64,000 bases of DNA, taken from positions 256,001 to 320,000 of the forward strand of contig OZ250186.1 in the NCBI GenBank assembly GCA_965238275.1, read 5' to 3'. Below the pieces are notes generated by a model. The model searched no databases. It had not been told where the DNA came from and was given only the letters and a program-made list of their open reading frames with translations. The position numbers and the translations under genes were made by a program. Position 1 is the stretch's first letter; every line of letters begins with the position of its first letter. The DNA is from Nitrosopumilus sp. (lineage in GTDB: Archaea; Thermoproteota; Nitrososphaeria; Nitrososphaerales; Nitrosopumilaceae). Below are positions 5,363 to 62,224 of this stretch, in pieces.

Positions 5363-6136
5363 TCAGAGGAACCCTCTTCTAGCCTTTTCTTTTCTGTCCT
5401 CTATATCCAGTTGTTCCTGCAACCACGCATGTCTTTTTTTCTCATATTCCGTTATCGGGGTCGTCCTGCCAATCGTGTACATTTTGTCTGACAATCCACA
5501 CGACTCGTCCAGTATCGCGTCCAGCCGCGTCTGGTTCCCCTTGATCTTGACCGGCCGCTGCCACGCGGGGCCGTCTTTCATTTCTGGCATTATGGTGCCC
5601 GCAGGCATTGTCTGTAGCTTCGGCTTGATCGTCTCTTGCATTGCCTGCGGTTTCGGCGTAATCGTCTCTTGTGCCTTTCCCGTCCGCCGCCTAGCTTCTG
5701 CCAGCACCAAGTTGTGCTTGGTCATCATCTCTCCCAAATCTTCCACCCTTTCCATGTCCTTGGTTAGCTCGTCGTTAAGGTCTTTGAGCCTTTCGTCTTC
5801 CTGTTTTGTCCTGTTCTTCTTCTCCATCAGCACCGCCGCCTCTGCCAGCATGTCGTTCCACCACCGCTTCTCGTCCCTGTTTCTCATGTAGCCTATCTTT
5901 TCCAGATCCCGTATCCTTTCGTCCTTTTCCATCTCCTTTTTCAACTGCTCCCGGATTCTTGCCTTGATCGTTTCCATATTTTCCTGCTTGTCCATGTACA
6001 ACCCGTCTTCATCCATCCTCACGTGCACCTTTGATCCCTTTTCAATACCCATCTGCTTTGCAGCCTTCTTCGGTATGCCAACGTATATGGTCGATTTGAC
6101 CTGCAATGCTGTCATTATCCACGTTGTCTCTTCCAT
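5363..6136 (-). CDS. AbrB/MazE/SpoVT-type DNA-binding protein with helical extension
   Basis: N-terminal VGIPKKAAKQMGIEKGSKVHV motif; paralog at 32565-33227. Confidence 0.7.
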   Translation of the reverse strand: MEETTWIMTALQVKSTIYVGIPKKAAKQMGIEKGSKVHVRMDEDGLYMDKQENMETIKARIREQLKKEMEKDERIRDLEKIGYMRNRDEKRWWNDMLAEAAVLMEKKNRTKQEDERLKDLNDELTKDMERVEDLGEMMTKHNLVLAEARRRTGKAQETITPKPQAMQETIKPKLQTMPAGTIMPEMKDGPAWQRPVKIKGNQTRLDAILDESCGLSDKMYTIGRTTPITEYEKKRHAWLQEQLDIEDRKEKARRGFL

Positions 6137-23748: not shown

Positions 23749-25345
23749 AGAGAATATGCGTAATCCCCCTGTCCACATCGATAAATTTAGATCAGGCACG
23801 ATCGTGTCTCACATCAAATGCCAGACTCGCCTGATCAGATCATATACAAGTTGCAGCAGGAAAACAAAAGACTAAAAAATATTCTAAAGCAGAAAGACAA
23901 AAAGCTGGAGCAGAAAGACAAAAAGCTGGAGCAGGAAAACAAAAGCCTAAAAAATATTCTAAAGCAGAAAGACAAAAAGCTGGAGCAGAAAGACAAAAAG
24001 CTGGAGCAGGAAAACAAAAGCCTAAAAAATATTCTAAAGCAGAAAGACAAAAAGCTGGAGCAGAAAGACAGGGATCTGGGCCTTGAGCGCGGCCTGTGGA
24101 AGAGCAGGGACGATGGCTGGAACCCCGGCAAGGGGCCCGCGCTGCATCTGCTAGAGGTGCTAGACGACATAATACGCGACGGGGACAAGCTCCGCCATGC
24201 CACGCTGGCAGACGGGGAACAGTTCCGGTACATGCTGGAGCGGGCCAAGGTGTTTCTGACGCATTCGGGCCAGATGCCGCTGTTCTGCGATAACGCATCC
24301 CGGGCCTCCGATCCCGGAAACCGGTGCAAGCTGCACCTGAGGCACGCGCTGCTCATGGCGCTGATGCACAAAAAGGAAAACATCACGCAGGGAACGCTTG
24401 CCGCGTTCTTCGGGATAGACCAGTCCACCGTGTCCCGGTACTTTCCTGTGATGGACGCGATGCTGGCAGGAATACTTCCGACGGCAGACAACATATCCGA
24501 GGAGGTAGCTGCTGCCCCGACCAGGGAAGATTTCAAGAAGATCGTGCCAGGATCGGATGGGGGCGAGATCTTCATAGACGGCACGCACTGCCCCATACAG
24601 CGCCCGTCCGTAAAGTCAGTCCGGCGCATGAAATACTCCGGCAAGAAGAAAAAGTTTACCAACAATACCAACGTGTACACCAACCGGAACGGGGTGGTGA
24701 TCGGCATATCAAAAAGCACCGTCGGGTCAGTCGGCGACATCACGCTGCTCAAGGAACGCCCCATGCCGTTTGGAAAGTGGGAGAAGGCGATGCACGATCC
24801 GGACCTGCCAGAATCAGACAGGTGCCACCCATTCGTCGACCGCGGCTACCAGGGAATCGCAGACCACCTGCCCGGCACCACGCCGGAGATCCCGCACAAG
24901 AAGACCAGGGACACGCCGCTGACGCCGGAGCAAAAAAAGCACAACCACAGGATCAACTCCACCCGGGTGTTGGTGGAGCACACGATAGGCAGGCTCAAGC
25001 GCTACGCGCGCCTCACCGACCCGTACGACGGCAACGCAGCCGGGTTCAACAGGGAGTTCAACGTGATCACAGGGCTGGTAAACCTGAATCTTTTGTGGGA
25101 CTGCATGGAAAAGGGCCCGCCGCCACCGGGGCAGTGGAAGACGTCAGTAGACTGGGACAGGGCCTGCTCCCAAGCTCCGGTCAAGTAGAATTCAGGGCAC
25201 GATGAAGTGCTGCAAGGCTGCGCACGTCATTTTGGATTTTGGGGTGAACGGACTTGCCACATGCCAGACACGAGTAGTTTTAGGCCGTATTTTTCCGGTT
25301 TTTTATGACCGAGTTGGCGAAATGGGCGGATTACGCATATCTTCT
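23749..25345 (+). mobile_element. IS5-family element copy 2, tandem to copy 1; transposase 23818-25188
   Basis: Same TIRs; 3 bp from copy 1; truncates the IS481 transposase. Confidence 0.9.
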
Positions 25346-29699: not shown

Positions 29700-31954
29700 G
29701 GGCCAGCATAAAAAATGACACCATAGATGTAGTTTGTTTCACAACCCTGCCCAGCATCCATGCCAGTCATTCCAGAATGGCATCGCCGTCTGCCCATGCC
29801 GCCGTCAAGACGACACAAGCCAACAAAAATCAATACGATGATCAACCATCTTAGGCAGAAAAGCACAAGGATCAGATCAACTGTGTGCAATCATGGACAG
29901 GAATGAAGAAAAACCGGCCAAGCAGAAATCGCGGCTAAAGATAACGCACGCCCAAAACGATGCCAGGTACGTGGAGATGGGCAAGCTGCTCCACCTGCAA
30001 AAGGATCCCGGCTCTGACGGAGAACTGGATCGCATGAACGCAAACAAGAACGGGCGCCCATACCAGTACCCGGACGTGGCCGTGATGGCAATTGCAGGAA
30101 TACGCTCAATCTACGGCACCCTGTCGTACCGAATGTGTCAGGGGATGGCCATGTCGGCACTTGGCCAAGAGGACGCCCCAGACCACGTCACACTGTGGAG
30201 AAGGATACGCGGCATGAAAGTGCGGCAGGAGGGTGGCGTGACTGCAATCCAAAACGGCAGCGACGTCTTGTGCCTGGTGCCTGACGCCACCGGACTCGCA
30301 CCCTCCACGCGCAGCGACTGGATACACCACAAGCACAGAAAGGTGCGCGGATTCATCAAGCTGAGCGTCATGATAAACCAGGAGACGAGGGAAATACTGG
30401 CCTTCAGGGTGACTGACGAGAGGAAAGGCGACTCGTCCCAGTTCAATGATCTCGTAGACGACTCGCTGAAGATTCTCGGCCTGGATGCGGCAGGACTCAG
30501 GGACGGCGTCGGCAAGGCGAAGGTAAGGGAAGCACGGCGTGCAGCAGGTTCCAAAAAATCCCAAAGCAAGGATCATCCCGATGCCGGGGATGTCCCGGAC
30601 GGATCCTGTGCGGCCGGCGTCGAGAACGCGACCGGGCCGTACGGCCGTGTGCCTTTCTGCCCGGTCATGCACGCAGGGGGAGGGCAGATCGTAATAGAAC
30701 TGCGTGGAGATGCAGGATACGACACGAGGGCGATATTCGAATACTGTCACAGATTAGGCATCGTGCCGCTCATCAGGATAAAGAAAAACGCCAACGGCCG
30801 GGCCAATGGAGTGGGCAGGACGCGCGGGCTTGCCGCGCAGGATCAGATGTGTGGCAGCAACCCCAGTCCGAAGAAGCTGGCCTCGCTAGACGTGGACGAA
30901 CGCGTCTCCAACCAAAAGGAATGGAAGGAGCGCGTGGGGTACGGGCGGCGATGGCTGGTAGAGATCGTATTCTCGTCACTCAAAAGGATATTTGGCTGCT
31001 CGGTCAACGCGGTAAAGATGGAAAACATAGTACAAGAGATTGCAATAAGGATCCGGACATACAACATGCTGCTGGCAGTGGCACGTGAGGCGATAGCGAT
31101 GGCGTGAACAAAACGGCCATGTTTTGGCGTCGTTGAAATTTGGATGACGGTAAGGCATAGTTGTGAAACTAACTACCATAGATGCAAGGACCCTTGCCCA
31201 CCTGCTGAGGTCCAACCTGGTCGCAGCCTGCCACATAGGCTCGGCCGAATCCAGGGGGATCAAGCAGGTCCTCAGATACCAGATGACCCTGGTGCGGGAC
31301 CGCACTAAAGTGATCAACTCCGTGCACGCGCTGACAGACAAGTACGACATAAATCCAAAAGATGGCGGTGCCCACGTCTGGAACGGAAAGGCCCTGAGGT
31401 ACCTTGAAGAGGCAGACATGAGGAACCTGCAGGACAGGTTCGTGCTAGACGGCTACATATCGCAGATACGCCACTACAACGACGGGATCAAAAGAACCGA
31501 ATGCGAGATCAAGGGATACGTCCGGGACTCCCACGCTCCAAAGATACTGCTGAGCATGACGGGAATGAACGTGTTTTCTGCGGCGCTGCTGGCAGCGGAG
31601 ATCGACACCATCGCAAGGTTTGGGAGTCCAAAAAAGCTGGTATCTTGGGCCGGCATGTGCCCGACGCTTCACCAGTCAGGCGACACGTCATACCACGGCA
31701 GGATGAAAAAGGATTCGAACCGGAAGGTCAACTGGATCATGATCCAGTGCGCGCTTACGGCAGTGCGCCATGACAAGAGGATGAAGGAATACTACACGCG
31801 TCTCATGAAGAGACACAGGCACAACATCGCCATGACGCATGTGGCAAACAAGATGCTGACGATCATCTGGCACATGCTGACAGAAGGCAACCTGTACGAG
31901 GATAGAAACGAGAAACTGTACCGCGCCAAGATCAAAGAGGTCATGAGGGCGTAG
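29700..31954 (+). pseudogene. IS110-family recombinase, 5'-truncated and interrupted by IS5
   Basis: Removing the IS restores IKNDTIDARTLAHLLR; HQSG and VANKMLTIIWHML motifs. Confidence 0.8.
29730..31175 (+). mobile_element. IS5-family element, same element as 733-2178 in opposite orientation; transposase 29893-31107
   Basis: Identical 404-aa protein; same TIRs; 9-bp TSD CCATAGATG. Confidence 0.92.
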
Positions 31955-34718: not shown

Positions 34719-37700
34719 TTAGAATGTGCGGTAATCCAATATGGATTTGCCTGACTGTGCGTCGTCAGGCGGCACCGTGCCCGGCGGGACGTCATTTGAT
34801 GATGAGTCGTGCGGTGGCGGATCACCGTCTACCGGCGTATCATCTGATGGTTCATCATCAGGCCGTATGTCAGAATCATCACTTGACGGCGGATCGTCAT
34901 TTGGTGGCGGATCGCCAGTGTCGAATTCATCCGCGTCGGAATCCTCGGGTTCCGTATCCTCAGGCTTGGCAGACGTAATGATTCGCGTCTCACCGCCCTC
35001 ATGATCCATTATGAACGCCGTGACTTTTTCCTTTATCGGACCTTCCCCTATCCTGTCGTATTCATCTTCAAGTTCCTTGTTGAACGACCACGCGTGGTAT
35101 TCACTGAATCCGGATTCGACCCATTTTTGCATGTTCTGCCCTGCGAGCTCGGGGTGGGAATCAACTTTTCCCTCTGGCTCTATCCTCACGGATATCGGGC
35201 TGTCGGTGTTGTAGTCGTACGCGACCATGTCTATGTGGTGCCAGTCGTTTCGTCCAAGCTGAACCGCCATCTCCAGAAAAAACCCTTTCCCTAAATAATA
35301 TTCGGAGACTATGGGGATTGCCTCCTTTATGTCCAGCGTCTTGCCCACCTCGTTGGAGCCGAAGGACAACTTGCCCATTGCAAAATCCGTGAGGCTGTAT
35401 TTGCCCTTGCGTCCCTCATCTTGGGTTACAAGTTTGGCACCTATCATCTCCTTCAATATGTCAGCTATCTCGTCCCGTGCGCGCGTGCCAGAGATAGGCT
35501 TGTTCTGCGGGTTGTACAGCTCTGTTATGGCTGTCAAGCTGAACTGCCTGTGTTGCAGTATCCTCATGATGTGCCAGTGGTCGTGCGACGGGATCCGTTT
35601 GTCTGCCACGCTCATCTTCCAGCGATTCTTTTCCATTTTCTTGGCATCGAGCATCGATATTTCCGGTTCCCGGTTCATGTAGAGTTTCTTTTGAGACTGT
35701 ATGAATTCTTTCCATTCCTCGTCGGATATGTTGGAACGGCAGACCTCGTCTGCGACCGGGTCAAAGTGCGTCCAGAACTGCACCGGCAGCGGCATCTCTT
35801 GCCCGGCTTCCGGCGCTATCCTGGCAATCCAGTGGTGTTTTGGCTGCGTCGCTATCTTTTCCTTGATCTCGTTGGCGTATTTTGGATCCCACGCCGACGC
35901 CAGCCTCTGGGCGTCGTTACCCTCGAGATGCCCCGCCATCTGCAGCCCGAAGTTCGTGGTTATGCTGCTGAGTTTGTTGTCATCCAATTGTTTGAGGTTT
36001 TGGTGCGCGAGTATCAGCCCGAGGCCCTTTGATCTTGCCTGCGATATCATCGTCTCCAGCACCCCTATGCTCTTTATCTTTTGGAACTCGTCGAGCGCGA
36101 GCACTACCTGCGTCCTGTCCTTTATTGATACCGTGGACGAACGGAACGAGACCTCGAACCACAGTTTCATGACGAAAGCCTGCATTGCAATGCCTATCTT
36201 GTCAAGCCCGATATCTGACTCGCTGAACCTTACCACGGTGTAGTGCCCAGGCCTGATCAAATCGCGGAAATTTATCGTCGACTTGCGCCTGCAGAACATC
36301 TGCCTCATCGTGTTGCTCACGACGAATTTCTCCAGTCTGTTCAGTACGGGCTCGAACGACTTTGCGTCCATGTCTGCAATCGACTGGAGCGCCATGTCCA
36401 GATCTCCGCTTGGCTCTCCTAGCGCGTCGTACATCACGCGCAGATAGTTCTTATCTGTCTGGATGTTCTGGATCATCTCGTACATGTCCTTGAAAGTCGG
36501 CTTGTCTTCCCCGACGTACAGGAAGAGCAGCAGGCTGTGCAGGATGCGGTTCATCCGGACGAACGCGTCCGAGTTGCCGTACCAGCCCTTGATCATGTCG
36601 AAAAAGTACCCCACGTACAGGTCCACGATTGCGTCCCTGTCCTCCTTATCGTACGGCGGCAACTCCAGCGGGTTGAGCGTAAAGTAGGTCTTTGACGGAT
36701 CCAGGTAATGTATCTTGTCGCCGTATATGGTGGAGCGTTCACACTGCCGGAGCAAGAACTCGGTGTCGTCGCCCTTTGGGTCGAAATAAATACAGGCGTT
36801 GGACCAGCCTATGCCGAGCTCCCTGAGGGTCTTGTTCTGGTCGAGATCGGCCAGGAGTTTCTTTGTTTCCATGTCGCACGGGATCATCCTCACAGGCACG
36901 TCCTGCCGAAGAGAAGCGTACAGGTTTGCCATCTCCAGATGTTTAAACATCACCTTGATTATGGAACTCTTGCCGCTGCCTGTTCCGCCTGACACGTATA
37001 CGTGGCATGCAAAATCATCTGGGGACATGGTGACTGCATCGATGGCGCTGGGGGCGTATTCTCGTCCAAACTGCCTGTAATATTCTTCCTGGTTGAAGGT
37101 GTTCTGTGGTTCAAATCTTCCTATGTTGAACCCCGGTTTGTTTATCTGCTGCGACGGCAGGACGGCGCCCCGCGTGGTGCTGATGTTGGGGGTGGACGGC
37201 TTCGGCAGGTGTATGTATGTCGGCATCTCGTTTGGAAGCGCTATTATGAACGGCGGCGAGCGGCGCGGCTTGTAAGAGCCCATCATTCCCTTGCGCATGT
37301 AATTGTCAAATATCTCGTAGCCGAACTTTCGCACGTCTGGGAGCAGGCGGAATGGGAACATGTCTATGCGCTGTCTCATCGTGTGCTGCTGCTCGACGTT
37401 GATGTAATCGGCCTTGTCGAGATTGCGGTTGAAGAAAGACGAGTGCCTGTACTTGAACGTCGTGAGGTAGTCGTAGGCGCACCTGATTGGTTCGAACGAT
37501 ATGGAGCCCATCACGTTGATGTCTGATATCGTCCCGGTATCCACGAGTCCGCGTATCGAGACCATCGTGTGCGGCCCCTGTCGTTTTTTGACGGCATCGG
37601 CATGGAGTGTAGGATAGTTGGTTTGAAAGTCGCCGTTTGCCTCCGGGTGCTCCTTCCTTGCTTCGGGTTTCGGCTTTCCGCTGAAGTTGATCTTCATGCC

Positions 37701-38282
37701 GTCAAGGATGCTGCCTCCTGTAATGTTCTTCTGTATCTTGCTGCGGTGGGCGCTGATAATATTCACGTGCCTGTTGAGGAAATACGTAAAGTCGTACTTG
37801 CAAAATACGACCTGCACCCACGCGGACTGGGCGCCCTGTATGGTGTTGGCGATGTTGGACAGCACCCACTGGGCCTCGTCTTCCTTGAACGCGGCAGTGT
37901 AGTGGCCGTGGTAATATCCGACGTCGAATATCTTGTATGGTATGGTCTTGTCATAGAAATCAGGATCAGGTTTTTCAAGCGGGATTATTTGGGCCCCGGG
38001 GTACATGTTGAGGAATGCCTGTTTGTATATTTGCGCGTCATCAGGCACCGTGACAATCACTATTTTGAGTTTCTTGGTCTCCCCGTCCCACCATATCTCG
38101 AACGATCTCACGGTGTCCGATGCCAGGCCGGCCGCGGCGTGCTTGATCATGTTCTCGTCGGAGTTGAGCGGTACCAATACTTCCATCGCCTTGCGCTCGG
38201 CGCCTTGGCCGATAAAGTCGGTTATCCCGTCCAGCCTGCCTTTCTGCTTGCGCGCGTTTGATATACTCCAAGTGTTACCCAT
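34719..38282 (-). CDS. VirD4/TraG- or HerA-like P-loop ATPase (1187 aa)
   Basis: Walker A GGTGSGKS, FDPKGD, Walker B LALDEFQ, ARSKGLGLILAHQ; acidic Pro/Asp-rich tail. Confidence 0.8.
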   Translation of the reverse strand: MGNTWSISNARKQKGRLDGITDFIGQGAERKAMEVLVPLNSDENMIKHAAAGLASDTVRSFEIWWDGETKKLKIVIVTVPDDAQIYKQAFLNMYPGAQIIPLEKPDPDFYDKTIPYKIFDVGYYHGHYTAAFKEDEAQWVLSNIANTIQGAQSAWVQVVFCKYDFTYFLNRHVNIISAHRSKIQKNITGGSILDGMKINFSGKPKPEARKEHPEANGDFQTNYPTLHADAVKKRQGPHTMVSIRGLVDTGTISDINVMGSISFEPIRCAYDYLTTFKYRHSSFFNRNLDKADYINVEQQHTMRQRIDMFPFRLLPDVRKFGYEIFDNYMRKGMMGSYKPRRSPPFIIALPNEMPTYIHLPKPSTPNISTTRGAVLPSQQINKPGFNIGRFEPQNTFNQEEYYRQFGREYAPSAIDAVTMSPDDFACHVYVSGGTGSGKSSIIKVMFKHLEMANLYASLRQDVPVRMIPCDMETKKLLADLDQNKTLRELGIGWSNACIYFDPKGDDTEFLLRQCERSTIYGDKIHYLDPSKTYFTLNPLELPPYDKEDRDAIVDLYVGYFFDMIKGWYGNSDAFVRMNRILHSLLLFLYVGEDKPTFKDMYEMIQNIQTDKNYLRVMYDALGEPSGDLDMALQSIADMDAKSFEPVLNRLEKFVVSNTMRQMFCRRKSTINFRDLIRPGHYTVVRFSESDIGLDKIGIAMQAFVMKLWFEVSFRSSTVSIKDRTQVVLALDEFQKIKSIGVLETMISQARSKGLGLILAHQNLKQLDDNKLSSITTNFGLQMAGHLEGNDAQRLASAWDPKYANEIKEKIATQPKHHWIARIAPEAGQEMPLPVQFWTHFDPVADEVCRSNISDEEWKEFIQSQKKLYMNREPEISMLDAKKMEKNRWKMSVADKRIPSHDHWHIMRILQHRQFSLTAITELYNPQNKPISGTRARDEIADILKEMIGAKLVTQDEGRKGKYSLTDFAMGKLSFGSNEVGKTLDIKEAIPIVSEYYLGKGFFLEMAVQLGRNDWHHIDMVAYDYNTDSPISVRIEPEGKVDSHPELAGQNMQKWVESGFSEYHAWSFNKELEDEYDRIGEGPIKEKVTAFIMDHEGGETRIITSAKPEDTEPEDSDADEFDTGDPPPNDDPPSSDDSDIRPDDEPSDDTPVDGDPPPHDSSSNDVPPGTVPPDDAQSGKSILDYRTF

Positions 38283-42361: not shown

Positions 42362-45300
42362 GTAAGAGGTCGCCTTTGCGAAGCGATTCCGTGCCTGATC
42401 TGTTCCGATTAATTACCAACTGAGCTACGTTTTTGACCATAAATGCCCGATTAATTGCACGTTATCAACACGGTCCTCAGGCAGGGTGGTTTTCGGATCA
42501 AGGCTCTTCCGGTTGGATCTTTTGCGCCGCATTTTCCGGCAGGCGCTGCGTGCCCAAAAGCTTTATGGATCATGAACTTTGTTTCCTAATTATCCCCAGC
42601 CACGCCCAACAGATCCAGAATCAGGTCGGACCAGCTGAATTTGAACACATTATCAAGCATCTTCAATAGAAAACCACATTGATCAGAGAGGTGTGCAGAC
42701 AGTCAGGTTATCGCCATGACTGAAAACACATCCTCTCCAGACAAAACGGGCACGCATGAGGCTAAAAAATCTTTCAAATCCAAAGAACGCCGGTTCCAGT
42801 ACGATGACCGCAGGTACATAGACCGCGGCCAGTTGTGGACGCTCCAGATAAGCCCGGAGATCCTGACTCAGGGGGTCGAGAAGCTAAACTGCGGGAAGGT
42901 AGGCCGCCCGTACGTATTTTCAAACGCGTGCTTTGCAGCAGCATCCCTGTTCAAAAACGCCACCGGCATAAGGTACAGGCAGCTCCAGGGTCTGGCAGAG
43001 ACGATAGTCGGCAAGGAAAACGCGCCCACGTACTCGGCGTTCCAGAAGAGGATGACCAAGCTTGGCTGCACTGTTGCAGACAATGATGATGGTAGCGGCA
43101 CGGCTTCTGCGTGGTTCTCAGACGGCGGCACCCGGGCCGAGATCAAGCTGTTTGCCTTCGACTCCACTGGACTCAAGCCCACAAACCGCGGCGACTGGAT
43201 GACAGAAAAGTGGGGGACCAGGCGGGGCTTCATAAAGCTGCACGTCGGGGTGGATGCCAAAACCAAAAAGATCTACGCCGTGGCCATAACCGACGACAAG
43301 TGCGGGGACTCTCCGCAGTTTGAGGAACTGGTGGGGCAGGCCCTTGCAAATGCAAAAAAATCACCAAACTCAGACACTTCTGCAGGCACCAAGGCGGCAG
43401 CCGACGGCGCGTACGACACCCAGAAGATCCGCAGGTACTGCGACGAGCAGGGAATCGAGCCGCTGATTCCCGTCCGCATCGACTTTGCCGGAAAGGCGAA
43501 CGGGTGCATGCCCCGCAAGGAGGCAGGATTCAGGCAGCTGGGGGACCTGGACTGCATGGACAAGACGGCAGAACGCAAGTTTGCAGGCCTCACGCGCGAA
43601 CAAAAGAGGGAATTCCAGAAGGCGTGGCGCAGGGAGTCAGGGTACAACGACCGGTGGTCAGTCGAGATTGTATTTTCCACGTTCAAGCGGGTGTTGGGCG
43701 AGTGCATAAGCGCGCGCAAGTGGGAGAACGTCAAGGCCGAGATATACGGAAAGGTGCAGCTGTACAACCAGATGATCGATACTGCAATCGACAACGGGTA
43801 CGGCACGCCAAGGATCGTGCAAGCCTACAAGCCCGGCCCAAGGACTGCAAGGGAAGGGGGCAAGACGACGACGTAGGCAGAATTGCACAGACGAGTATCT
43901 GTGTCGAGCGTAATTAGGAAACAGAGTTGGATCATGCCTTCCCGTGTTATGGCGTGGTGCCTGTAATCGACTTGGAAAAGATTGACTGGGACTCCGTAAC
44001 CGACACCAAGTCCCTCTTCGAATCCGTCTTGGACATGCTCAAATCCAAGGACGAGGAGAGCATGGCACTGAGAAAAGACATCGAGCAGCTGAAGGAGGAG
44101 GCAGAGGCCTTCTCAGGGGAACATGCGATGCTGACGGAGATGGATGCCAGGATCAAACTGCTGGAAGAAGAGAATGTGCAAAAGGACTCCGAGATAGAGA
44201 AGCTGCGGGCAGAAAACGCCGCCCTCCTACAGGGATGCGACGTCTCGCAGGCAGTCATGGACAGGATAGCCCGCCTGGAACAGCAGGCATCAGAGCATGC
44301 CTCTCAGTTAAGGGAGGCGCGCGCGGCCAACTCGGCGCTGGCAGCCGAGAATCTGGGCATCAAAAGCCGCCGCTCCAAGAAGCGGCTCCGGGAATCACCC
44401 GGGCCTGCACCAGACCCGTTCAGAAAGGTCGTCTGCCTGCGCACCGGCCGTGATCCTCCCCCGATATCCGAAAAAAAGATAGTCGACATGTCCGCCTGCC
44501 CGCACGGCCACGCCCTATCGACAGAACCCACCGAGGTAACCTTCCGGGTAGTCGAGGAGATCATCGACGGGAAACTGACCGGCATCCAGTATACCATTAT
44601 TCGCAGGTACTGCAGGGAATGCGGCAGGCAGTTTGCCCCCGAGATCCCGGGAGTCGTCCCCGGTGGGCGGTTCGGCGCCAGCCTGACGTGCCTTGAGACG
44701 ACGATGAGGATGTACGGCATTCCCTACGAAATCATCCGCAAGCTGATCAACATAATCCACCACACAAACCTTGCAAAGTCGACTGTCATCGGCCACGTGG
44801 ATGCCGTGACAGGATCCCTCCACCCGCTCTACGAGGAGATGCTCGAGGATATGTTCTTCTCAGGGCATGTCTTTGGCGACGAGACCAGCTGGAGGGTAGC
44901 CGGTGTGCTGTACTGGCTGTGGATACTAGTCGGCTCCGACTCGGCTGTCTTTTACGTGGACAAGCGCCGGGGAGGAGACGTGCTGGAGGCCCTGCTTGGA
45001 GGGTACGCAGGCCACGTCACCTCTGATTCACACGCTGCGTGGAACCGCATCGGCAGGACCCACCAAAAGTGCCACTACCACTACCTCCGCGAGATCCTCC
45101 GCACCCTGACCATGAAAAACCCGGGGCCAGAATTCAAAAAGTTTGCCAAGGCCCTAAAGGGGATAATCATCGATTCCTGGCACGCAGAGAAGGGACTCAA
45201 CCCGCATGACGACAAGGCCGCGCGAAACCTCAAGGTGCGCAACCTCCTGGCCCGGGTAAGGCGCCTGATGTCTGGCAGCTACACCGAACCCCACTGCAAG

Positions 45301-45916
45301 CGGTTTGTCAAGCGGCTGCGGCGCGAGATCACCCACCTGTTCCCATTCATCCGCCTCAACACAAAGTGCCATAACAACGACGCCGAGCGCCCCCTGCGGC
45401 CCAGCGTCTCATCCCGGAATGTCTCAGGCGGCAGCAAGAGCCTTGCCGGCGCATACAACCACGCCGTCCTGGCCAGCATCCGCGAGACGTGCAGGATGCG
45501 CGGCGTCAACCCGCACGACTTTTTGGTAGACTACATGCGAGGTATCGTCGAAAGGATACCGGCAACAGCAGCAGCGGCAGCAACAACTGCATAAATCCTG
45601 CAAAATCCATCCATGGCTGCCCTGCATGTCCTGCGCGACTCCCGTCGCACCGGTTGCCTGACACGTATCAGGCCGCCGTACCGGCCCTCCACCAGATTCG
45701 GGCACAACGCACCGCCCCGGCAGCACCAAAAAAGATCCACTTCGCAAGTCCGATCACCGGATCGGCCAAAACGCAGCTCAGCCGAGCCTCACCCCGCCCG
45801 GAAAAAATCCTGAATAATGCCAATCAAATGGGCATTTACGGCCCAAAACGTAGCTCAGTTGGTAATTAATCGGGGCAGATCAGGCACGAAATCGCTTCGC
45901 AAAGGCGACCTCTTAC
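42362..45916 (+). mobile_element. IS66-family element with ~85-bp TIRs; transposase 43927-45594
   Basis: GTAAGAGGTCGCCTTTGCGAAGCG... inverted at both ends; GDETSW, TSD-S-H and HNNDAER motifs; no target duplication seen. Confidence 0.85.
42575..43928 (+). mobile_element. IS5-family element nested in the IS66 left end; transposase 42716-43876
   Basis: TIR AACT(T/C)TGTTTCCTAATTA; 8-bp TSD GGATCATG; DSTG, ADGAYD and GY..RWSVE motifs. Confidence 0.88.
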
Positions 45917-46033
45917 AAATAAACCCGATTTGTAAAAGGTGGGATTACTTTACAGGCAAACTTGTGTGACTGTTGGATTTGTGATTCAGGTCGGTAGGGC
46001 TTCATAAGGAGGCAGTCGTGTAGGCATCTAAAC

Positions 46034-46789
46034 TCATCTTTCCCTTGCAGGGCTTCCCGTGCCAAATATTTTCAGCGCCGTCTCCCCCTGCTTTTGGATT
46101 GATACCTCGCTCCTCCTACCCCTTGACTTGACAGAGATCAGGCTCCAGTCCCTCTCCATCGGATCAAGCAGTACCCGCAACCTGCTATGCTTTGCAGAAC
46201 CACCGAGTTCTTTCCCATCCACATCCGAGAGACTGATCACACCCATCTCTTCAAGTTCTTTCATAAGCTGAGCCTTACGCATGACACCACCATGTCTACT
46301 CAGTAGATCCAAAATCAACATGAACTCCTGCTTTGGTTTGTTGATGCTGTACGTGGGGAGATCCTCCGGTTCGTCTACGTGCTCTGAGAGGTCTACAATT
46401 TTCTTCCTCCCGACGTACGAGACAGGGGCGTAATACGGATGTGCATTCCACATCATACACGATAGCATACCTGCTATGGACGTGATCTTGGTGCCGGTCG
46501 AGACATTGACGTAGACATGATTCTCCTTTGCATCCAAGATGATCTTGCGAAACCCCTCCACACACTTGTACAGATTCCACAGATCCAAAGAGATCTCCTC
46601 TACATGGATGTGCTTGTAATTCTGTTTCAGTTCGTTCTTTACTTTAGTGTAAAATACTAGTGCGTCGTCATCAATCTCGGTGTGTTTCACAAGGTATACT
46701 AGATCCGCACGCATCTGTATGAGCGGCTGGGTCACGCGCCGGAATTCGAATCCTACAGGAGATATGTGTATCCTAAGCTTGGTCTGCAA
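46034..46789 (-). CDS. HFX_2341/DUF6293-type regulator (CARF-like Rossmann domain plus winged HTH)
   Basis: HISPVGFE, VYVNVSTGTKI and PYY motifs; C-terminal wHTH. Confidence 0.75.
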   Translation of the reverse strand: MQTKLRIHISPVGFEFRRVTQPLIQMRADLVYLVKHTEIDDDALVFYTKVKNELKQNYKHIHVEEISLDLWNLYKCVEGFRKIILDAKENHVYVNVSTGTKITSIAGMLSCMMWNAHPYYAPVSYVGRKKIVDLSEHVDEPEDLPTYSINKPKQEFMLILDLLSRHGGVMRKAQLMKELEEMGVISLSDVDGKELGGSAKHSRLRVLLDPMERDWSLISVKSRGRRSEVSIQKQGETALKIFGTGSPARER

Positions 46790-46898
46790 TGGGATCGTTA
46801 ACCATGTTTTCTTTATTTAGTTTTATCTCGTTATTAACTTTATTAACGTAATTACATCAAACAGATTAAAATAGTCGCAACCCCTTTAAAAAGTAGAG

Positions 46899-47135
46899 AT
46901 GAGCGAGATGGACAAGGAGAGCAAGATCATATTCGTCAATAACAAAAAGCTTTTCGTCAAAGAAGACGTGCTACTTGGAAAAGAGATATTGGAACTTGCG
47001 GGATTTGAGCCTAACAAGTACGATCTGTTTCTGGTGCGTGGCCAAAAAAGCGAAAGGATAGAAGAAAATCAACGGTGCGAGATCAAGAATGACATGCACT
47101 TTAATGCAATCCTAAAGGATGTGCCGTATGGGTGA
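46899..47135 (+). CDS. Ubiquitin-like (multi-ubiquitin-type) protein
   Basis: IFVNNK..LLGKEILELAG..YDLF beta-grasp pattern; ends in Gly. Confidence 0.8.
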   Translation: MSEMDKESKIIFVNNKKLFVKEDVLLGKEILELAGFEPNKYDLFLVRGQKSERIEENQRCEIKNDMHFNAILKDVPYG

Positions 47136-47521
47136 TACCAGACAGGCTACTGCAAGACACCAACATGCTAAAGGCAAGAGGCTTTAACCTCAGCCTTATT
47201 GAGCGTGATGGGAAGGTGTATGTGGAATTCAAGGACTTTCCACTCCCAGAAGGCGTATACAGTATGGACACTACCAACTTGATTATCTTTACTAGTCCGC
47301 ATTACCCTTGCGCATCGTTTGATATGTTCTGGACGTTGCCTGAGTTGGTCATGAAAGACGGTCCCGTCCCCAAACAGGCAGAGGTCATAGAGACCCACTT
47401 GGGAAGAGAATGGAGGCGGTTCAGCTACCACCCATATCAAAATGTCACTTGGAATCCTTCTGACGATAATGTCGTAAAGTATGTAGGGTATGTACAGCAA
47501 AGGTTGCAAAACGGCGATTGA
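47132..47521 (+). CDS. Prokaryotic E2/UBC-like protein (E2_E type)
   Basis: FPLPEG.Y, YP...DMFW and WRRFSYH..WNP motifs; 4-bp overlap with the Ubl gene. Confidence 0.8.
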   Translation: MIPDRLLQDTNMLKARGFNLSLIERDGKVYVEFKDFPLPEGVYSMDTTNLIIFTSPHYPCASFDMFWTLPELVMKDGPVPKQAEVIETHLGREWRRFSYHPYQNVTWNPSDDNVVKYVGYVQQRLQNGD

Positions 47522-47522
47522 A

Positions 47523-48857
47523 ATGTGGACTATCACATTCCCTAAGCCCCTGTACAAGGAACTGGAAGAGTTTTTGTTCAGCACAGCACCATACGAGAAC
47601 GGGTGCTTTTTGCTAGCGCAGGCATATGATGCTGGCAAGAGATCCATGCTACTTGCCACGGACATCCTAAAACCTGCTGAGGGATCTTGGAACTCCCAAG
47701 GAAGGCACAGCCTTATGCCTAGCTCGTCGTTTATCAATGAATGCGTCGTAAGGTCGGAGGCGACCAAATCCAGCCTAATCTTTGTGCACACCCACCCAGA
47801 TACTGCACACCCTCCAACATTCAGCAAGATAGACAGGATAACCAACAGGAAGATGTTCACAAACCTCTCTGAGATCGTGCCTGGACGACCACTAGGTAGC
47901 CTGGTGTTCAGCAGGCATGGTGTTTCCGGAGTCGTGTTTGATAAGGCTAGAATCTCTAGCGTCAAACGTGTAAAGATAGTGGGCAACACTCTGACTGAGT
48001 GTAATACTATCGGGACCAACGCCAGATCGTCCAAGACAATGGCCATGTTTGAGAGGCAGACCAGAGCGTTTGGCACACATGTTCAACAACAGATCCAAAA
48101 CATGTCGGTGACTGTCATAGGAGTCGGTGGCACGGGTTCGTCTGTGTCAGTCCAGCTCGCAAGGATGGGTGTGAAACACATACGGTTGGTGGACATGGAC
48201 CACGTCGACGAGTCCAACCTTACAAGGATATATGGCTCAAGAAAGTCAGATGTGGGCAGGATGAAAGTAGACGTGCTGAGGCGTCACATTATGTCGTTTT
48301 CAAGATCCACAGTGACTGCGATATGTGCCAACGTGTTAGATGACTCTGTACTCAATGCGCTGATAGAGTCAGATGTCATGTTTGGATGTACTGACAACCA
48401 CATAAGCCGGCACAGACTCAACGAGATCTCGAACAGGTTCTACATCCCGTTAATTGACGTGGGGTGCAGGATAGATGTGGACGATGCCGGATCGATATCT
48501 CAGGCAGTAGCAAAGATTCAGGCCGTCACACCGGAAAGCGCGTGCCTGTGGTGCTCTGGTACCCTTGATGGCAGAACCATGTTGCAGGAATCGTTGCCGG
48601 AGGAAGAAAAAAAGAAGCTCGCAGAAGAAGGATACTACGAAGAGGTCGGCAAGCAGCCCAGCGTAATATCGTTGACCACGCTGGCTGCCAGCATGGCGGT
48701 CAACAAGTTCCTTGGCATCGTAGGCGCGATTGAAGATGAGTCAGGTACGAGGCTGCAAGTGGAACTGAGGGGCGGTTTCATGATCAGCGATGTGCCAGAG
48801 ATAAGGGCAGAATGTGTCTGCCGAAAGAATATGGGCGTGGTGTTCCGTAACGCCTAA
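47523..48857 (+). CDS. JAB/MPN peptidase - ThiF/E1 fusion
   Basis: JAB E...HTHP...FS..D; E1 GVGGTG, D.D.VDESNL.R, CTDN, CLWC and CVC. Confidence 0.88.
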   Translation: MWTITFPKPLYKELEEFLFSTAPYENGCFLLAQAYDAGKRSMLLATDILKPAEGSWNSQGRHSLMPSSSFINECVVRSEATKSSLIFVHTHPDTAHPPTFSKIDRITNRKMFTNLSEIVPGRPLGSLVFSRHGVSGVVFDKARISSVKRVKIVGNTLTECNTIGTNARSSKTMAMFERQTRAFGTHVQQQIQNMSVTVIGVGGTGSSVSVQLARMGVKHIRLVDMDHVDESNLTRIYGSRKSDVGRMKVDVLRRHIMSFSRSTVTAICANVLDDSVLNALIESDVMFGCTDNHISRHRLNEISNRFYIPLIDVGCRIDVDDAGSISQAVAKIQAVTPESACLWCSGTLDGRTMLQESLPEEEKKKLAEEGYYEEVGKQPSVISLTTLAASMAVNKFLGIVGAIEDESGTRLQVELRGGFMISDVPEIRAECVCRKNMGVVFRNA

Positions 48858-49638
48858 AACGCGTCCTGAATTGGAACTGGTTGGGCTCTGGGTACTGCCA
48901 AGCCCGGACTCAGCATATCTTGATGAGCGCCTCGTCCACGTGGAATTTCGAAATGTTTCAAGCGAGACGATTCACGTAACGTCAGTCGCATGCTCGTTTC
49001 AAACGGAAGAAGATCTTGAAGATCATAGGATAGTGTGGACGCGTCCACTTTATTTGAAATCCAAACAGAGGAAGGCGATCACCATGAATCTAAAAATTGA
49101 TTTGGAACTAATTCCGTACACAAACATACCATTTACAGAGGTCTCATACACGATTGACAACTCAGAACGAGTTAAAAAATTTGAGTGTCCGCGTGGCTTT
49201 GCCAACATCAACAATATCCCGTCCCATGACAAATACTTCTTCATCTCGCACAAGATTCCCACAGACACACGACTGGCCAGACGACTCGATTATTACCTGC
49301 GGAAGATCGGATTTTGGGGGTATGTTGCGGAAGCCATCCCCCAGCCTGGTCAGTCGGTGTGGGAGGAAAAGCTCTTTCCAAAAATAGAAGAATGCACCGG
49401 CGTTATCGTACTATGGACCCGAGAGGCCAAAGGATCGCCCGAATCCATAGATCGAGAGGTGCGCCGTGCTAGGAAGTATGACAAGAGAGTAATGTCGCTT
49501 ATAGAAGGCGAATCAATACCGGATGTGGTTGCCAATCAACCAGAGGAATACATTATGACAAGTGGTCCCATAACGGAGTCTAGCCTCGTCAAACTTGTAC
49601 ACAGAATACGCATGATGTACGAAGACGGAACTTTTTGA
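48814..49638 (+). CDS. TIR-domain protein with beta-rich N-terminal domain (start uncertain)
   Basis: FFISH..D..LA..L, PG..W, VIVLWT..S..IDRE (catalytic Glu position). Confidence 0.78.
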   Translation: MSAERIWAWCSVTPKTRPELELVGLWVLPSPDSAYLDERLVHVEFRNVSSETIHVTSVACSFQTEEDLEDHRIVWTRPLYLKSKQRKAITMNLKIDLELIPYTNIPFTEVSYTIDNSERVKKFECPRGFANINNIPSHDKYFFISHKIPTDTRLARRLDYYLRKIGFWGYVAEAIPQPGQSVWEEKLFPKIEECTGVIVLWTREAKGSPESIDREVRRARKYDKRVMSLIEGESIPDVVANQPEEYIMTSGPITESSLVKLVHRIRMMYEDGTF

Positions 49639-49928
49639 TTGTATCACGACACCCAAACGTAATCATCATACTGACGAGTAGTGAAAAATTTGTATCACAC
49701 GCAACGGTACAGGATCTTTTAGGCCTGCAATCACGGCGGATCTGGATCCCTTGCAGTATCCCGACTTGGGAACTTCCCGTGAATTTACCCACTTGCTTGT
49801 GTTGCATTCCCCTGTAGCACCGCCAAAATCTAAAAATAGTATGTGATTCGCTTTTTGAAGTTCCCCGAGATTCCGTGCCTGTATGCGTAGTAATTTGATT
49901 AATGATTCGGACAATTAATTGAATTTTG

Positions 49929-51564
49929 GTATCTGTGTAGTTTTTTGATCAAATGTTGAACTCCATATCTACAATTAGAAAATCCGCGTCTGTCTAATTT
50001 TTTTAAAACTATTTTTGATCACTTGATCGAGTTTTTCTCTCCGTCCTAATTTTTAGATCATTGTTGCCCACGGTTTGCATATGTCTGATGATAATTCCGA
50101 GTCAAGGATTGCAGAACTGGAGGAAAAAGTGGGTGTGATGGCAGAGCAGATGGCCGAAAAAGACCGGCAGATGGCCGAAAAAGACCGGCATATGGCCAAA
50201 CTCGCTGATCTTTACGCTGCCGCCCTCAAACAGATCCAGGATCTCACGGCAGAGTTGCAGGAGGCAAAGGGCATCATATCGGCTGCCGTTGCAAGGAGCA
50301 TCGGCGCAAAACCGGACAAAAAGACCGGCAGTACCCGGCGCCGCGCAAAGGGCAAGGGCAAGGGCAAGCCAAGTGACCACAAACGCACGGGCCTTGCGCG
50401 TCCTGAAAGAATAGACGCAGAGGAAACAGCAGATCCGCACACGTGCGGCAACTGCGGCAGCTCCGACCTCTCAGAATGTGTGTCCACGTACACAAAGGTG
50501 GTAAGGGAGGCTGCCAAGGTGGAACTAGAGCACATCAAGGTGACAGTAAAGAGAAGGCGCTGCAGGAACTGCAAGAAGACCGTGTCTGGCATGACTCCGC
50601 TGGCACTGCCAAACTCCAGGTACGGGATCAACTTTATGATAATGATGGTCATCCTCAGGCTGCACGGCATGTCAGACCTCAGGATATGCCAGATTGTCCT
50701 GATAACGTACTCTGCAAGGATCACCGAATCTGCCATAAACCGCATGGTGTGCAGGATGGCACGGGAGCTTGGGCCGCTGTACGAGAAGATCAAGGAGGAG
50801 GTGAGGCGCTCGCCTGCGATAAACGGGGACGAGTCCGTCTGGCGCGTCAACGGCACCAACTACTGGCTGTGGGCGGTGGTAACAAAGTACGCCGTAATCT
50901 ACGAGGTACACCGCCGCAGGAACTCGAAGGTTCCAAAAAAGATGCTTGGCAGGGACTATTCGGGATGCGTGACGTCTGACTCGTGGGGAGCGTGGAACGT
51001 CATAGGAGCCATGCACCAAAAGTGCCACCTGCATTACGTCCGGGACGTCAAGGACACCCTGAAATACAAAAATCCCGGCCAGGACTACCGGCGGCACGCA
51101 AGGACGCTGCGCAGCATACTGTGGGACTCGCACGTCGACGGTGCCATTCTGGGAGGAGCAGACGCGCTTGCCACAAAGAAGAGGCTGGACCGTCGCATCG
51201 CGTCCCTGGTAGGCAGGCTCGAGAAGGACCGCGACTGCAAGCACTGCAACAGGATGCGCAAGAGGCTGGTGCGGGAAAGGGATCACCTGTTTGCGTTTCT
51301 GGAGACAGACGATGTCGAATACCACAACAACCGGGCAGAGCGGGCCATCAGGCCGTACGTCATCCTTCGCAAGAACAGCAACGGGAGCAGGTCAAAGAAG
51401 GGCGCAGACGCTATTGCCATACTGATGAGCATCAAGCAGACATGCAAGGCAAGGGGCGATGATCTTTGCACGGTCCTGCGCGAGGGTCTGGTTCTATGTC
51501 AAAAAAATACATAGTTTCTTGTAGACCTGGAATTCAACATTTGATCAAAAAACTACACAGTTAC
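49929..51564 (+). mobile_element. IS66-family element; transposase 50075-51514
   Basis: ~35-bp TIR; 8-bp TSD GAATTTTG; GDES and HNNRAER motifs. Confidence 0.9.
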
Positions 51565-51746
51565 GAATTTTGCCGTATTTTTGCCATAGTCTACATCCAT
51601 GCGGTAAATTTCCCGGCTTTGGTACAAGGGGACTACATCATGGACGGGCGTGCCCGTCATTTGGACATGGCTTGAATCAAAGACGGCGTGTATTGGACAG
51701 TTTGCAGGTGGCTGGAGCGAATCCACGCCGTATTTGAGATGCATAG

Positions 51747-60710: not shown

Positions 60711-62221
60711 TAGTGAAAAGCGAAAGTTCGTGCAATTTTTTGAGATCCTTTTTAAGAAAATAAATCTCAACTACAGGTATGATTGTCAGTAAAATCATCA
60801 AGATAACACAATCTCGGGAACTGTCACGCAAGATCGTGAAATGCTCCCGGGAAACAGACATCGTTTACGACATGACAATCATGATGAAACTTGCACATCC
60901 CGGGATCACACAGTTTGATGTCAACAACCTGATAACAGGATGGCGCAGGGAATTCAACCTGACCAGCAGCGTCTACATGCATGAGGCCGCCTCAAAACAG
61001 GCTTTCCAGGCGGCAGTCAAATTCCGCAAGGCAAACCGGCTCAAGCACAACAAGCGCATCTGGCGCAAGAAACAGATCAAGCTGGGGAAAAAGAAGACGT
61101 ACAAGCACAATCGGTGGACCGAGCCGTCCAGCCTGATGAGGCGCGGCAGGAAAACAACCAGGCTGCGCTCGCTGAATTCACGCGGAAAGCCAAAACTGCG
61201 GGACGACGGCACCGTATTTCTGCCCGGACTCGGGGAAGCAAGGCCACGCACGAAGGTTCCAGAAGGCAGGCTCGTGTCATTCCAGATGATTGACACCACA
61301 GGCAAGGTCACGCGTAAGACCAAGGATGGTGATCGCGAATTCAAACTGCATTTGCAGATAGAAGTCCCAGACCCCGAACCCGCGACAGGTGGTGGTGGCC
61401 GCGGATGCAAGGCAGGGCTGGATCTTGGAGTCAGGCACCTTGCGGCAGTCGCAGACGAGCATGGGAATGAAAAACTGCACAATGTCCCCGGAGGCTGCAA
61501 GAGGCATGACGGCGACAGGATTGATCAGCTGAAATCGCTTAGATCAAGATGCCAGGCAGGCTCCAGAAGATGGAAAGAGATCGGCCGCAAGGTAACGCAT
61601 GAATTGAAAAAGATATCAAACAGGCAAAAACACAACGAGGCCGACATTGCCAGGCGGATAACAAAAGGACTGTCCGTATTGTTCTTGGAAGACCTGGATT
61701 TGACCAGGATGAGGAGATCCAACGGGGCGGCTTCAAAGACGGGGTTGAACCGCGAGATGGCCTATTCCAGAATGGGCGAGTTCAGGATCCAGCTTGAATG
61801 GCAGATGAAAAAGAAAGGCGGAATTTCAAGACGCGTGGAATCCGCACATACAAGCCAGAGATGCGCTGCCTGCGGGGTAGTGGACAAAAAGTCCAGGAAC
61901 GGTGAATCATTTGTCTGCGTCTCATGCGGATGGTGCCACCATGCCGACAAGAACGCGGCAAAAAACATTTTGGATAATGACTGTCTCCATACGGAGGAGA
62001 CTGGCGGCCAAGCCCACGGGAATCGTGGAGGCACCATTGCAGGTGTCGAGGTCGTCACAAGGCGCGAGGATCACGGATCGGATGGTTCTGGAATGAACAA
62101 TTCGACAGGTCGGCTTGGACCCGACAACGACGACAATATTGGAAGGTCTGACAGAGCGCCGGAAAGAGCATCAGGACATGCTACAGAGAGATCTGTTTGC
62201 ACGAATTTTCGCTCGCCGCTA
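60711..62221 (+). mobile_element. Non-autonomous tnpB element with imperfect 25-bp TIRs and a TA duplication at a CTAG site
   Basis: Left end TAGTGAAAAGCGAAAGTTCGTGCAA; right end (revcomp) TAGCGGCGAGCGAAAATTCGTGCAA; excision restores the carbonic anhydrase frame. Confidence 0.75.
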
Positions 62222-62224
62222 TAG
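60779..62224 (+). CDS. tnpB: RNA-guided endonuclease TnpB
   Basis: RuvC GLDLG / FLEDL / HADKNAA; TSQRCAACG..CVSCG zinc ribbon. Confidence 0.9.
   Translation: MIVSKIIKITQSRELSRKIVKCSRETDIVYDMTIMMKLAHPGITQFDVNNLITGWRREFNLTSSVYMHEAASKQAFQAAVKFRKANRLKHNKRIWRKKQIKLGKKKTYKHNRWTEPSSLMRRGRKTTRLRSLNSRGKPKLRDDGTVFLPGLGEARPRTKVPEGRLVSFQMIDTTGKVTRKTKDGDREFKLHLQIEVPDPEPATGGGGRGCKAGLDLGVRHLAAVADEHGNEKLHNVPGGCKRHDGDRIDQLKSLRSRCQAGSRRWKEIGRKVTHELKKISNRQKHNEADIARRITKGLSVLFLEDLDLTRMRRSNGAASKTGLNREMAYSRMGEFRIQLEWQMKKKGGISRRVESAHTSQRCAACGVVDKKSRNGESFVCVSCGWCHHADKNAAKNILDNDCLHTEETGGQAHGNRGGTIAGVEVVTRREDHGSDGSGMNNSTGRLGPDNDDNIGRSDRAPERASGHATERSVCTNFRSPL

Follow-up and report, generated by a model that had tools for sequence, protein, structure and literature searches.

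A Bub-type ubiquitin-like conjugation cassette with an adjoining TIR gene and a divergent CARF-family regulator in Nitrosopumilus sp.

We analysed a window of 64,000 nucleotides (nt) from Nitrosopumilus sp. (GCA_965238275.1, contig OZ250186.1, positions 256,001-320,000 of the forward strand), in which positions 46034-49638 harbour a ubiquitin-like conjugation cassette together with a TIR gene and a regulator gene. All five genes of this locus, four of them co-directional and one divergent, are open at full length. The forward strand encodes, in this order, a single beta-grasp ubiquitin-like protein (Ubl) of 78 amino acids (aa), which was recognised by the Multi_ubiq profile and whose frame ends with Tyr-Gly-stop (46899-47135), a BubB-like E2 of the Prok-E2_E family (129 aa; 47132-47521), a BubCD-like fusion of a JAB/JAMM domain and an E1 (47523-48857, with the open reading frame (ORF) open from 47490), and a two-domain protein composed of a beta-sandwich and a TIR domain, assigned by TIR_2 and a predicted structure (48871-49638, ORF open from 48814). 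The fifth gene, located on the reverse strand (46034-46789), encodes a regulator of 251 aa with a CARF-family (HFX_2341_N) and a winged-helix (DUF6293_C) domain, as indicated by Pfam and PADLOC. Between the regulator gene and the Ubl gene lies an AT-rich region of 109 bp (46790-46898), which upon inspection of the sequence is presumed to be a bidirectional promoter/operator; judged by eye, it comprises TATA-like A/T-rich stretches approximately 25-30 nt before either start codon.

The initial annotation of this stretch had described the Ubl, E2, JAB-E1 and TIR genes as tightly coupled and apparently intact, which is supported by the open frames and by the distances at the junctions. The Ubl stop and the GTG start of the E2 gene overlap by 4 nt in different frames, 1 nt separates the E2 stop from the ATG of the JAB-E1 gene (47523), and 13 nt lie between the JAB-E1 stop and the TTG start of the TIR gene (48871), both start positions being those favoured by homologues. 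Counted from 48814, the TIR frame would overlap the JAB-E1 gene by 44 nt. Judged from this arrangement, the four genes probably constitute one tightly packed operon. The CARF-like regulator of the annotated gene set is present as well, but sits divergently on the opposite strand.

The Ubl scored 27.1 bits with Multi_ubiq (cut-off 24.5), and its C-terminal Gly, already annotated initially, is invariant in all 23 aligned relatives. The frame stops straight after this Gly in 14 of 25 relatives and extends by a tail of 1-10 residues in 11. As many Ubl frames already stop at the Gly, the JAB domain is not always required for maturation. One high-GC relative (L025, G344:C2) has a Ubl gene (5584-5937) with an insertion of approximately 36 residues, a Pro/Gly/Gln-rich repeat, inside the beta-grasp domain.

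The E2 proved to be an E2_E-type protein, as annotated, with 81.9 bits in Pfam for Prok-E2_E, a family defined by early comparative-genomics papers. Among solved structures, Citrobacter BubB matches it best (E 1.8e-5), and in the alignment the D and S-x-H residues coincide. The putative catalytic residues Asp64 (47321), Ser98 (47423) and His100 (47429), which align with those of BubB, are the same in all 29 unique relatives. Cys60 is found in the window protein alone (1/29), and no Cys is conserved in the E2. Likewise, the annotated JAB-E1 fusion is borne out by a ThiF match (120 bits) that covers residues 188-417 of the ORF (455 aa), by the metal (JAMM) motif E..HxH..S..D (E25/H89/H91/S101/D104), invariant in 34 of 34 sequences, and by the best solved match, Citrobacter BubCD, which spans both domains (E 1.1e-31, residues 8-398). 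Tyr371 (48633) is also invariant (34/34) and aligns with the crossover-loop Tyr of BubCD (Y370 in the numbering of the preprint); a Cys within the E1 crossover region occurs in 1 of the 34 sequences. According to the accessible part of the Bub preprint, Bub conjugation is cysteine-free and employs the E1 crossover-loop Tyr (Y370) as well as Ser, His and Asp of the E2 (10.1101/2024.11.21.623953). By its sequence, the conjugation core is thus of the Bub type and not of the Bil type. Of the "Bub/Bil-type" architecture proposed initially, the Bub part stands, given the BubCD and BubB matches and the retained Tyr, Ser, His and Asp, whereas the features of Bil were not found.

With Type I Bub (formerly 6E.1/DUF6527; Citrobacter BubAB-BubCD-BubE) the locus shares the JAB-E1 fusion in the same domain order, the Tyr in place of a Cys in the E1 crossover, the Prok-E2_E/BubB-type E2 with Asp, Ser and His, the Gly-ending Ubl, and the mobile or defence contexts. 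However, Type I Bub encodes a fused Ubl-E2 pre-protein, BubAB, whereas Ubl and E2 of the archaeal relatives examined are always encoded by separate genes in different frames. In place of the regulators CapW or CapH+CapP we find a CARF protein with a winged helix-turn-helix (wHTH), and the window E1 retains a metal motif of four Cys without an aligned equivalent in Type I BubCD. Moreover, unlike in Type I Bub, the host is an archaeon and a subset of the cassettes carries a beta-sandwich-TIR gene. Within its accessible text, the Bub preprint states of the DUF6527 serine protease that "all Bub operons possess bubE" (10.1101/2024.11.21.623953). Among the five products of the locus there was no match to DUF6527/BubE, and PF20137 (DUF6527) gave none at E<=0.01 in the whole single-contig genome (99.92% complete), while the control genome was positive. 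The genomes of relatives yielded a clear match in one of five cases, located far from the JAB-E1 genes of that genome.

In Bil (BilABCD), as far as the preprint could be consulted, the JAB protein is free, the E1 comprises an inactive and an active adenylation domain in tandem as well as a Cys domain, and the E2 forms a thioester (10.1101/2024.11.21.623953). The set of Ubl, E2, JAB and E1 genes in a defence context is common to Bil and the locus, and so, likely, is the logic of tagging proteins with a Ubl during infection. In contrast to Bil, the single adenylation domain encoded here is fused to the JAB domain, and neither E1 nor E2 has a conserved catalytic Cys.

The AlphaFold2 model of the TIR protein, calculated from a 77-sequence alignment, displays two domains with a mean predicted local distance difference test (pLDDT) value of 96.8. 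In this predicted structure the beta-sandwich comprises approximately residues 1-115 and the TIR domain approximately residues 120-255. Structural alignment with VIA-align placed residues 117-254 close to the TIR domain of MAL (Z 14.3, root-mean-square deviation 2.6, 128 aligned residues) and of SARM1 (Z 13.4), and the model also matches MyD88, RPS4, ThsB and TIR-SAVED. A search of the Protein Data Bank with the single TIR sequence gave no match, but a profile of the family did, the best being SPARTA TIR-APAZ (E 3e-9), followed by SARM1 (E 6e-4); by sequence, the profile matches TIR NADases and not deoxyribosyltransferases. Among homologues TIR_2 scored 28.5, 48.4 and 51.7 bits, and 26.3 bits, under the cut-off, in the G344 (L025) homologue.

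Glu196 (49456-49458) is invariant in all 77 family members and is their sole invariant acidic residue. As counted by hand in the alignment, it corresponds to position 77 of the SPARTA TIR-APAZ chains, which agrees with the retained catalytic Glu position mentioned in the initial annotation. The NADase activity of SPARTA TIR-APAZ is lost in the E77A mutant, as stated in the accessible part of the report (PMC9097488). Judged from these alignments, the TIR protein is a candidate NADase with an intact putative catalytic Glu196. The N-terminal beta-sandwich model resembles Spo0M (Z 12.2) and, more generally, Spo0M/transglutaminase-type sandwiches (Z 10-12), a likeness between folds that carries no specific functional information in the model. 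Foldseek with the two-domain model returned only generic glycosidase matches of the sandwich-plus-alpha/beta kind, and comparison of the beta-sandwich with a protein atlas gave scores of at most 0.84, which serve as leads only. At the very C-terminus (window positions 49627-49638), past the last helix, most family members keep a Gly 2-5 residues from the end; the tail after this helix looks too short for recognition by JAB or E1.

The CARF-like nature of the divergent regulator is corroborated by 103.3 bits for HFX_2341_N (cut-off 30), 47.6 bits for the DUF6293_C winged helix (cut-off 27) and a PADLOC match to CARF3 (5e-52, residues 1-242). NCBIfam returned a Csa3-like match under its cut-off, and the full-length HFX_2341 equivalog scored 21 against a cut-off of 500, so that the protein is a member of the wider family only. 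Of the 24 close-clade metagenome loci that include the Ubl gene plus at least 0.9 kb upstream, 23 contain a homologue (40-60% identity) that is placed divergently as here, and so do the genomes G203, G224 and G240. A second HFX_2341_N regulator gene (123 bits) is located in the same genome outside the window (G000:C1:1366384-1366755).

Further known systems share single modules with the locus. Type II CBASS, in which Cap2 (E2-E1) and Cap3 (JAB) are encoded and which in some cases has TIR effectors, likewise joins an E1/E2/JAB module to an immune effector; as far as covered by the available part of the Bub preprint, conjugation there regulates the immune output, a precedent for conjugation-controlled signalling (10.1101/2024.11.21.623953). 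However, the five products gave no CD-NTase match and include no SAVED sensor, E2 and E1 are separate, and the window E1 matches the PADLOC "E1-E2" models only partially. Moreover, the E2-E1 fusion Cap2 conjugates the cyclase itself; the window locus, in contrast, has a dedicated Ubl. With SPARTA TIR-APAZ, ThsB, TIR-SAVED and SARM1-like NADases the TIR protein has the fold and the aligned catalytic Glu in common, but its partner domain is a small beta-sandwich and not APAZ, SAVED or STING, and its activator would be a Ubl cascade instead of an Argonaute or a cyclic nucleotide.

The SAMP/UbaA and Caldiarchaeum-type systems of archaea likewise comprise beta-grasp modifiers and a ThiF-type E1. 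To our knowledge, SAMP systems use no E2. The Caldiarchaeum-type ubiquitin system employs a Cys E2 and a RING E3 and, as a paper title indicates, Rpn11. The NCBIfam SAMP-E1 (UbaA) model NF047750 gave 52.6 bits against a cut-off of 450, and all ThiF/MoeB/SAMP-E1 models of NCBIfam remained far under their cut-offs for the JAB-E1 protein, in agreement with the initial statement that the locus differs from archaeal SAMP. NCBIfam supplied no names for Ubl, E2 and TIR. PADLOC, a check suggested with the initial annotation, matched neither the Ubl nor the E2 nor the window TIR protein and named no system for the locus, nor does the locus correspond in full to a defined system, as the Ubl-E2 fusion and DUF6527/BubE are missing.

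Our literature search, which did not extend to most subscription journals or the early Prok-E2_E papers, found no Bub-like cassette with a TIR gene, with a CARF regulator or without BubE, and the texts of two Bub preprints and of the Bil preprint yielded none either. The term "TIR" is absent from the accessible text of the Bil preprint (PMC10557695), and the searchable part of Table S1 of the Bub preprint contains one thaumarchaeal entry, a Type II Bub, and no "TIR" (10.1101/2024.11.21.623953). Provisionally, therefore, a Bub-type cassette lacking BubE and accompanied by a TIR gene and a CARF-type regulator is a combination undescribed so far; together with the two missing features of Type I Bub, the literature search lends this provisional support to the initial remark that the combination is not a described system.

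JAB-E1 relatives fall into at least 120 clusters with 49-69% identity, one of them from Candidatus Nitrosotenuis. The cassette was detected in 14 of 400 other genomes of the class-wide sample, all within one family, and the same gene order was found in these 14 genomes and in 37 metagenome loci, several of which are near-duplicates; the arrangement thus exceeds chance. Two related records are labelled as metagenome-assembled genomes of Thaumarchaeota and Cenarchaeum. A scan of genome contigs with the single JAB-E1 protein gave no confirmed locus, and the corresponding scan for the TIR family yielded two loci, both already among the relatives found. Scans of viral contigs for JAB-E1 and the TIR family gave no confirmed relative; being pattern-based, they leave viral carriage possible.

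The window cassette is contained in a unique piece of 4025 bp (45890-49914), which displays no differences among contigs of two studies. The contig depth is 2-11 over the cassette and 10-100 times higher in the flanking segments, and its GC content is 0.478 as compared with 0.551 in the housekeeping genes at 54.8-64 kb. On the left it is flanked by a multi-copy IS66-family insertion sequence (IS) element (43928-45830, forward strand) with a transposase ORF at 43927-45594 (DDE_Tnp_IS66, 101.5 bits), a contig depth of 55-2100 and an inverted joint at 43928/45830. A second IS66-family element (49926-51567, forward strand) begins approximately 290 nt past the TIR stop; it encodes a transposase at 50075-51514 (DDE_Tnp_IS66, 121.4 bits) and is bounded by terminal inverted repeats of 49 nt (49926-49974 and 51519-51567) that are 90% complementary. 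Contigs of the runs X1 and X2 include a form in which 49920 is connected with 51565 and this right element is absent; the insertion is therefore polymorphic in the sampled populations. The initial annotation had the genes surviving amid heavy IS decay; instead, the flanking IS elements look largely intact, and within 1-54 kb of the window we count at least 15 transposase ORFs (DDE_Tnp_1, DDE_Tnp_4, IS66, IS110, DDE_3, rve), many of them full length. Neighbours of the relatives include a PADLOC dCTP-deaminase (1e-149), QatC-like, AbiLi/AriA-like ATPase and McrBC genes. Taken together, these data point to a horizontally mobile module of Nitrososphaeria that is probably antiviral. The cassette also decays, as indicated by two truncated metagenome cassettes: L045 has a Ubl that breaks off at residue 35 and lacks the regulator, and L062 retains nothing of the cassette but the C-terminal half of JAB-E1, after which an Mrr-like nuclease is encoded.

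We then asked how closely the TIR gene is associated with the conjugation cassette. At E 1e-30 or better, the profile of the TIR family matched 71 clusters. All five full-length TIR matches of the class sample (the window, two in G224, G344 and G105) adjoin a JAB-E1 gene, as does a TIR-only match in G291; the class-sample tally of 18 of 401 genomes includes two unpublished genomes, on which no other result depends. In the family-level sample, at a threshold of E 1e-20 or better, we observed ten TIR-family places in 9 of 401 genomes, and nine of these ten adjoin a JAB-E1 gene on the same strand, either with an overlap or with gaps of a few to approximately 60 nt. As far as the TIR family itself is concerned, the gene has thus been kept together with the operon, contrary to one way in which the initial proposal could have failed. 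The association extends over distant clades, as the JAB-E1 proteins of the TIR-bearing clades G105, G418 and G483 are only about 30% identical to that of the window. The lone place away from a JAB-E1 gene, in G290, is occupied by an ORF that encodes TIR alone and lacks the beta-sandwich.

The gene following JAB-E1 is, however, variable. In its place we found the stand-alone dCTP-deaminase (G203), the AbiLi/AriA-like ATPase or the QatC-like gene. Further loci have a DAC cyclase with the sensor domains DACNG/DACNH or, on the opposite strand, McrBC, and in others no gene could be recognised. We considered, and rejected, the idea that this variable fifth gene encodes swappable effectors, since several of the genes are stand-alone defence genes and have no adaptor in common with TIR. 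The TIR gene could be an independent single-gene defence element that lies beside the cassette without any joint working. The variable position, the many cassettes that lack a TIR gene and the failure to find an adaptor domain that the TIR protein would share with three further proteins encoded downstream speak for this explanation. Yet, a one-sided dependence of TIR on JAB-E1 is not expected from random adjacency in a defence island: nine of ten TIR-family places adjoin a same-strand JAB-E1 gene across clades with about 30% identity, and the only free-standing member lacks the beta-sandwich. We therefore regard an independent TIR element as unlikely, while giving it some weight. We read the TIR protein as an accessory dedicated to a minority variant and standing outside the conserved core, and the other neighbours as the company of a defence island.

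Taken together, we rather favour the reading that the locus is a mobile, probably antiviral module of the Bub type and that, in the variant present here, a TIR effector is tied to the conjugation machinery. By analogy with Bub biochemistry, the E1 would adenylate the C-terminal Gly of the Ubl, which would be passed on as an oxyester from Tyr371 of the E1 to Ser98 of the E2 and finally to target lysines. The JAB domain would trim Ubl tails where they are present and would probably also remove conjugates, thereby replacing the missing BubE protease. As suggested by its position, the CARF-wHTH protein may control transcription upon binding of a small, probably nucleotide-like ligand. The beta-sandwich-TIR protein, translated from the same predicted operon, would serve as an NAD+-consuming or signal-making effector. 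In the least supported step, its activity might be tied to the cascade via the beta-sandwich, the protein being either a target of conjugation or a platform for Ubl-dependent oligomerisation. That conjugation triggers the TIR protein is purely what we infer. Spelled out, upon infection the Ubl would be attached to the TIR protein, or Ubl assemblies would be recognised by it, via the beta-sandwich, resulting in oligomerisation and in destruction of NAD+ or production of a signal, until JAB resets the system; to this full scheme we assign a small chance.

Several observations weigh against the reading of a TIR-coupled Bub-type module. Only 5 of the 21 JAB-E1 places in the genomes are accompanied by a TIR gene, and of the 32 metagenome loci whose sequence reaches 400 bp or more downstream, only 2 contain one. 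As most cassettes have no TIR gene, the core works without it. Adjacency alone is moreover weak evidence, because several of the downstream genes are stand-alone defence genes. Comparison by hhalign detected no domain common to the TIR family and the deaminase, a 395-aa ORF and the Mrr-like protein (<1%), a weak comparison with single sequences on one side. Some of the domain assignments are borderline: Prok-JAB scored 17.1 bits, under the Pfam cut-off, in the JAB-E1 protein, TIR_2 scored 25.7 bits against a cut-off of 28 in the window TIR protein, and the TIR domain model matches nucleoside 2-deoxyribosyltransferases about as well as TIR domains (Z 14.2). Finally, in the accessible part of the Bub preprint no function is shown for any Bub operon, and E. 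coli was not protected against phages (10.1101/2024.11.21.623953). Predictions of a complex of four chains (Ubl, E2, JAB-E1 and TIR), which scored 0.60, 0.00 and 0.00 in the individual runs, provide evidence neither way.

Alternatively, the TIR protein could act as a sensor or amplifier and not as a killer, making an NAD-derived nucleotide that is sensed by the CARF regulator, which in turn switches on the Ubl cassette. TIR domains can make signalling nucleotides, the catalytic Glu is intact, and a CARF-family regulator is divergently coupled to the operon; in addition, no Csm1-type Cas10 cyclase that would supply cyclic oligoadenylate was found in the host genome, as searched with a single model (TIGR02578). 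However, the 23 of 24 close-clade loci that keep the regulator are nearly all without a TIR gene, and in the flanks retrieved for the TIR-bearing loci of G105 and G344 no such regulator is seen. The two genes are therefore not mutually dependent, and we consider such a loop improbable. Equally improbable is a housekeeping Ubl system for turnover, regulation or sulfur transfer of the SAMP/ThiS/MoaD kind with the TIR-like domain as a nucleoside or nucleotide enzyme, since the ThiF/MoeB type of the E1 domain, the deoxyribosyltransferase-like fold and the lack of a known defence phenotype in the accessible descriptions of Bub operons, which would fit it, are opposed by the sporadic occurrence of the cassette (14/400 other genomes), its IS-flanked, low-GC setting, the defence neighbourhoods of its relatives, the presence of E2 and JAB, which argues for protein conjugation, the NCBIfam scores far under the cut-offs, a separate E1-like gene elsewhere in the genome and the profile match to TIR NADases.

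As described in the accessible part of the preprint, Bub represents a newly described, chemically unusual branch of ubiquitin-like conjugation with oxyester rather than thioester intermediates (10.1101/2024.11.21.623953). The lineage studied here displays a naturally minimal Bub core, with Ubl and E2 split, no BubE found and JAB as the only peptidase, and adds a different sensor or regulator for a Bub-type cassette, the CARF-wHTH protein. The recurrent TIR sub-variant offers a measurable output, the turnover of NAD+, for asking what Bub conjugation does. In addition, the candidates for conjugation-linked immunity are extended to ammonia-oxidising archaea, about whose antiviral systems little is known, and the locus links Ubl tagging and TIR, two modules that are central to eukaryotic innate immunity. 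Should conjugation indeed gate the TIR protein, the locus would constitute a prokaryotic counterpart of the TIR signalling that ubiquitin controls in the innate immunity of animals and plants, and NAD+ destruction or signalling by TIR would be the first assigned output of any Bub-type pathway.

Several further observations were made in relatives of the cassette. In L024 (G224:C26), the TIR gene at 191-967 on the forward strand is followed by a diverged beta-sandwich-TIR paralogue at 1131-1820 on the reverse strand. This second G224 paralogue, approximately 1 kb past the first, is 24% identical and scored 51.7 bits with TIR_2, and an ORF of 229 aa belonging to no known family lies between the two. 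In L074, L075, L080 and L073, whose JAB-E1 proteins are 26-29% identical, small hydrophobic and probably membrane proteins of 72-209 aa replace the TIR protein; the Ubls of these loci also end with Gly. A diadenylate cyclase of 595 aa with DACNG and DACNH sensors is encoded in L037/L038 (3455-5242) on the same strand, approximately 195 nt past the cassette, and, in view of the CARF regulator, one may ask whether nucleotide signalling is involved.

Elsewhere in the window, overlapping genes on the reverse strand (8826-15622) encode a 1089-aa PLD and SNF2/helicase protein and a 1176-aa N6-adenine methyltransferase of the Eco57I/MmeI type; this pair, located on the same island, resembles a DISARM/BREX-like or Type ISP-like restriction module. 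A protein of 1187 aa with TraG-D_C/TrwB coupling-protein motifs (34719-38282, reverse strand) is a hint that the IS-rich island represents a present or former integrated conjugative element. Transposase genes with identical Pfam scores are repeated on opposite strands at 801-2015 and 29893-31107, and tandem DDE_Tnp_4 transposase copies lie at 22230-23588 and 23818-25188. Finally, a TnpB/Cas12f1-like protein (OrfB_IS605 and TNB) is encoded at 60779-62224 on the forward strand amid housekeeping genes.

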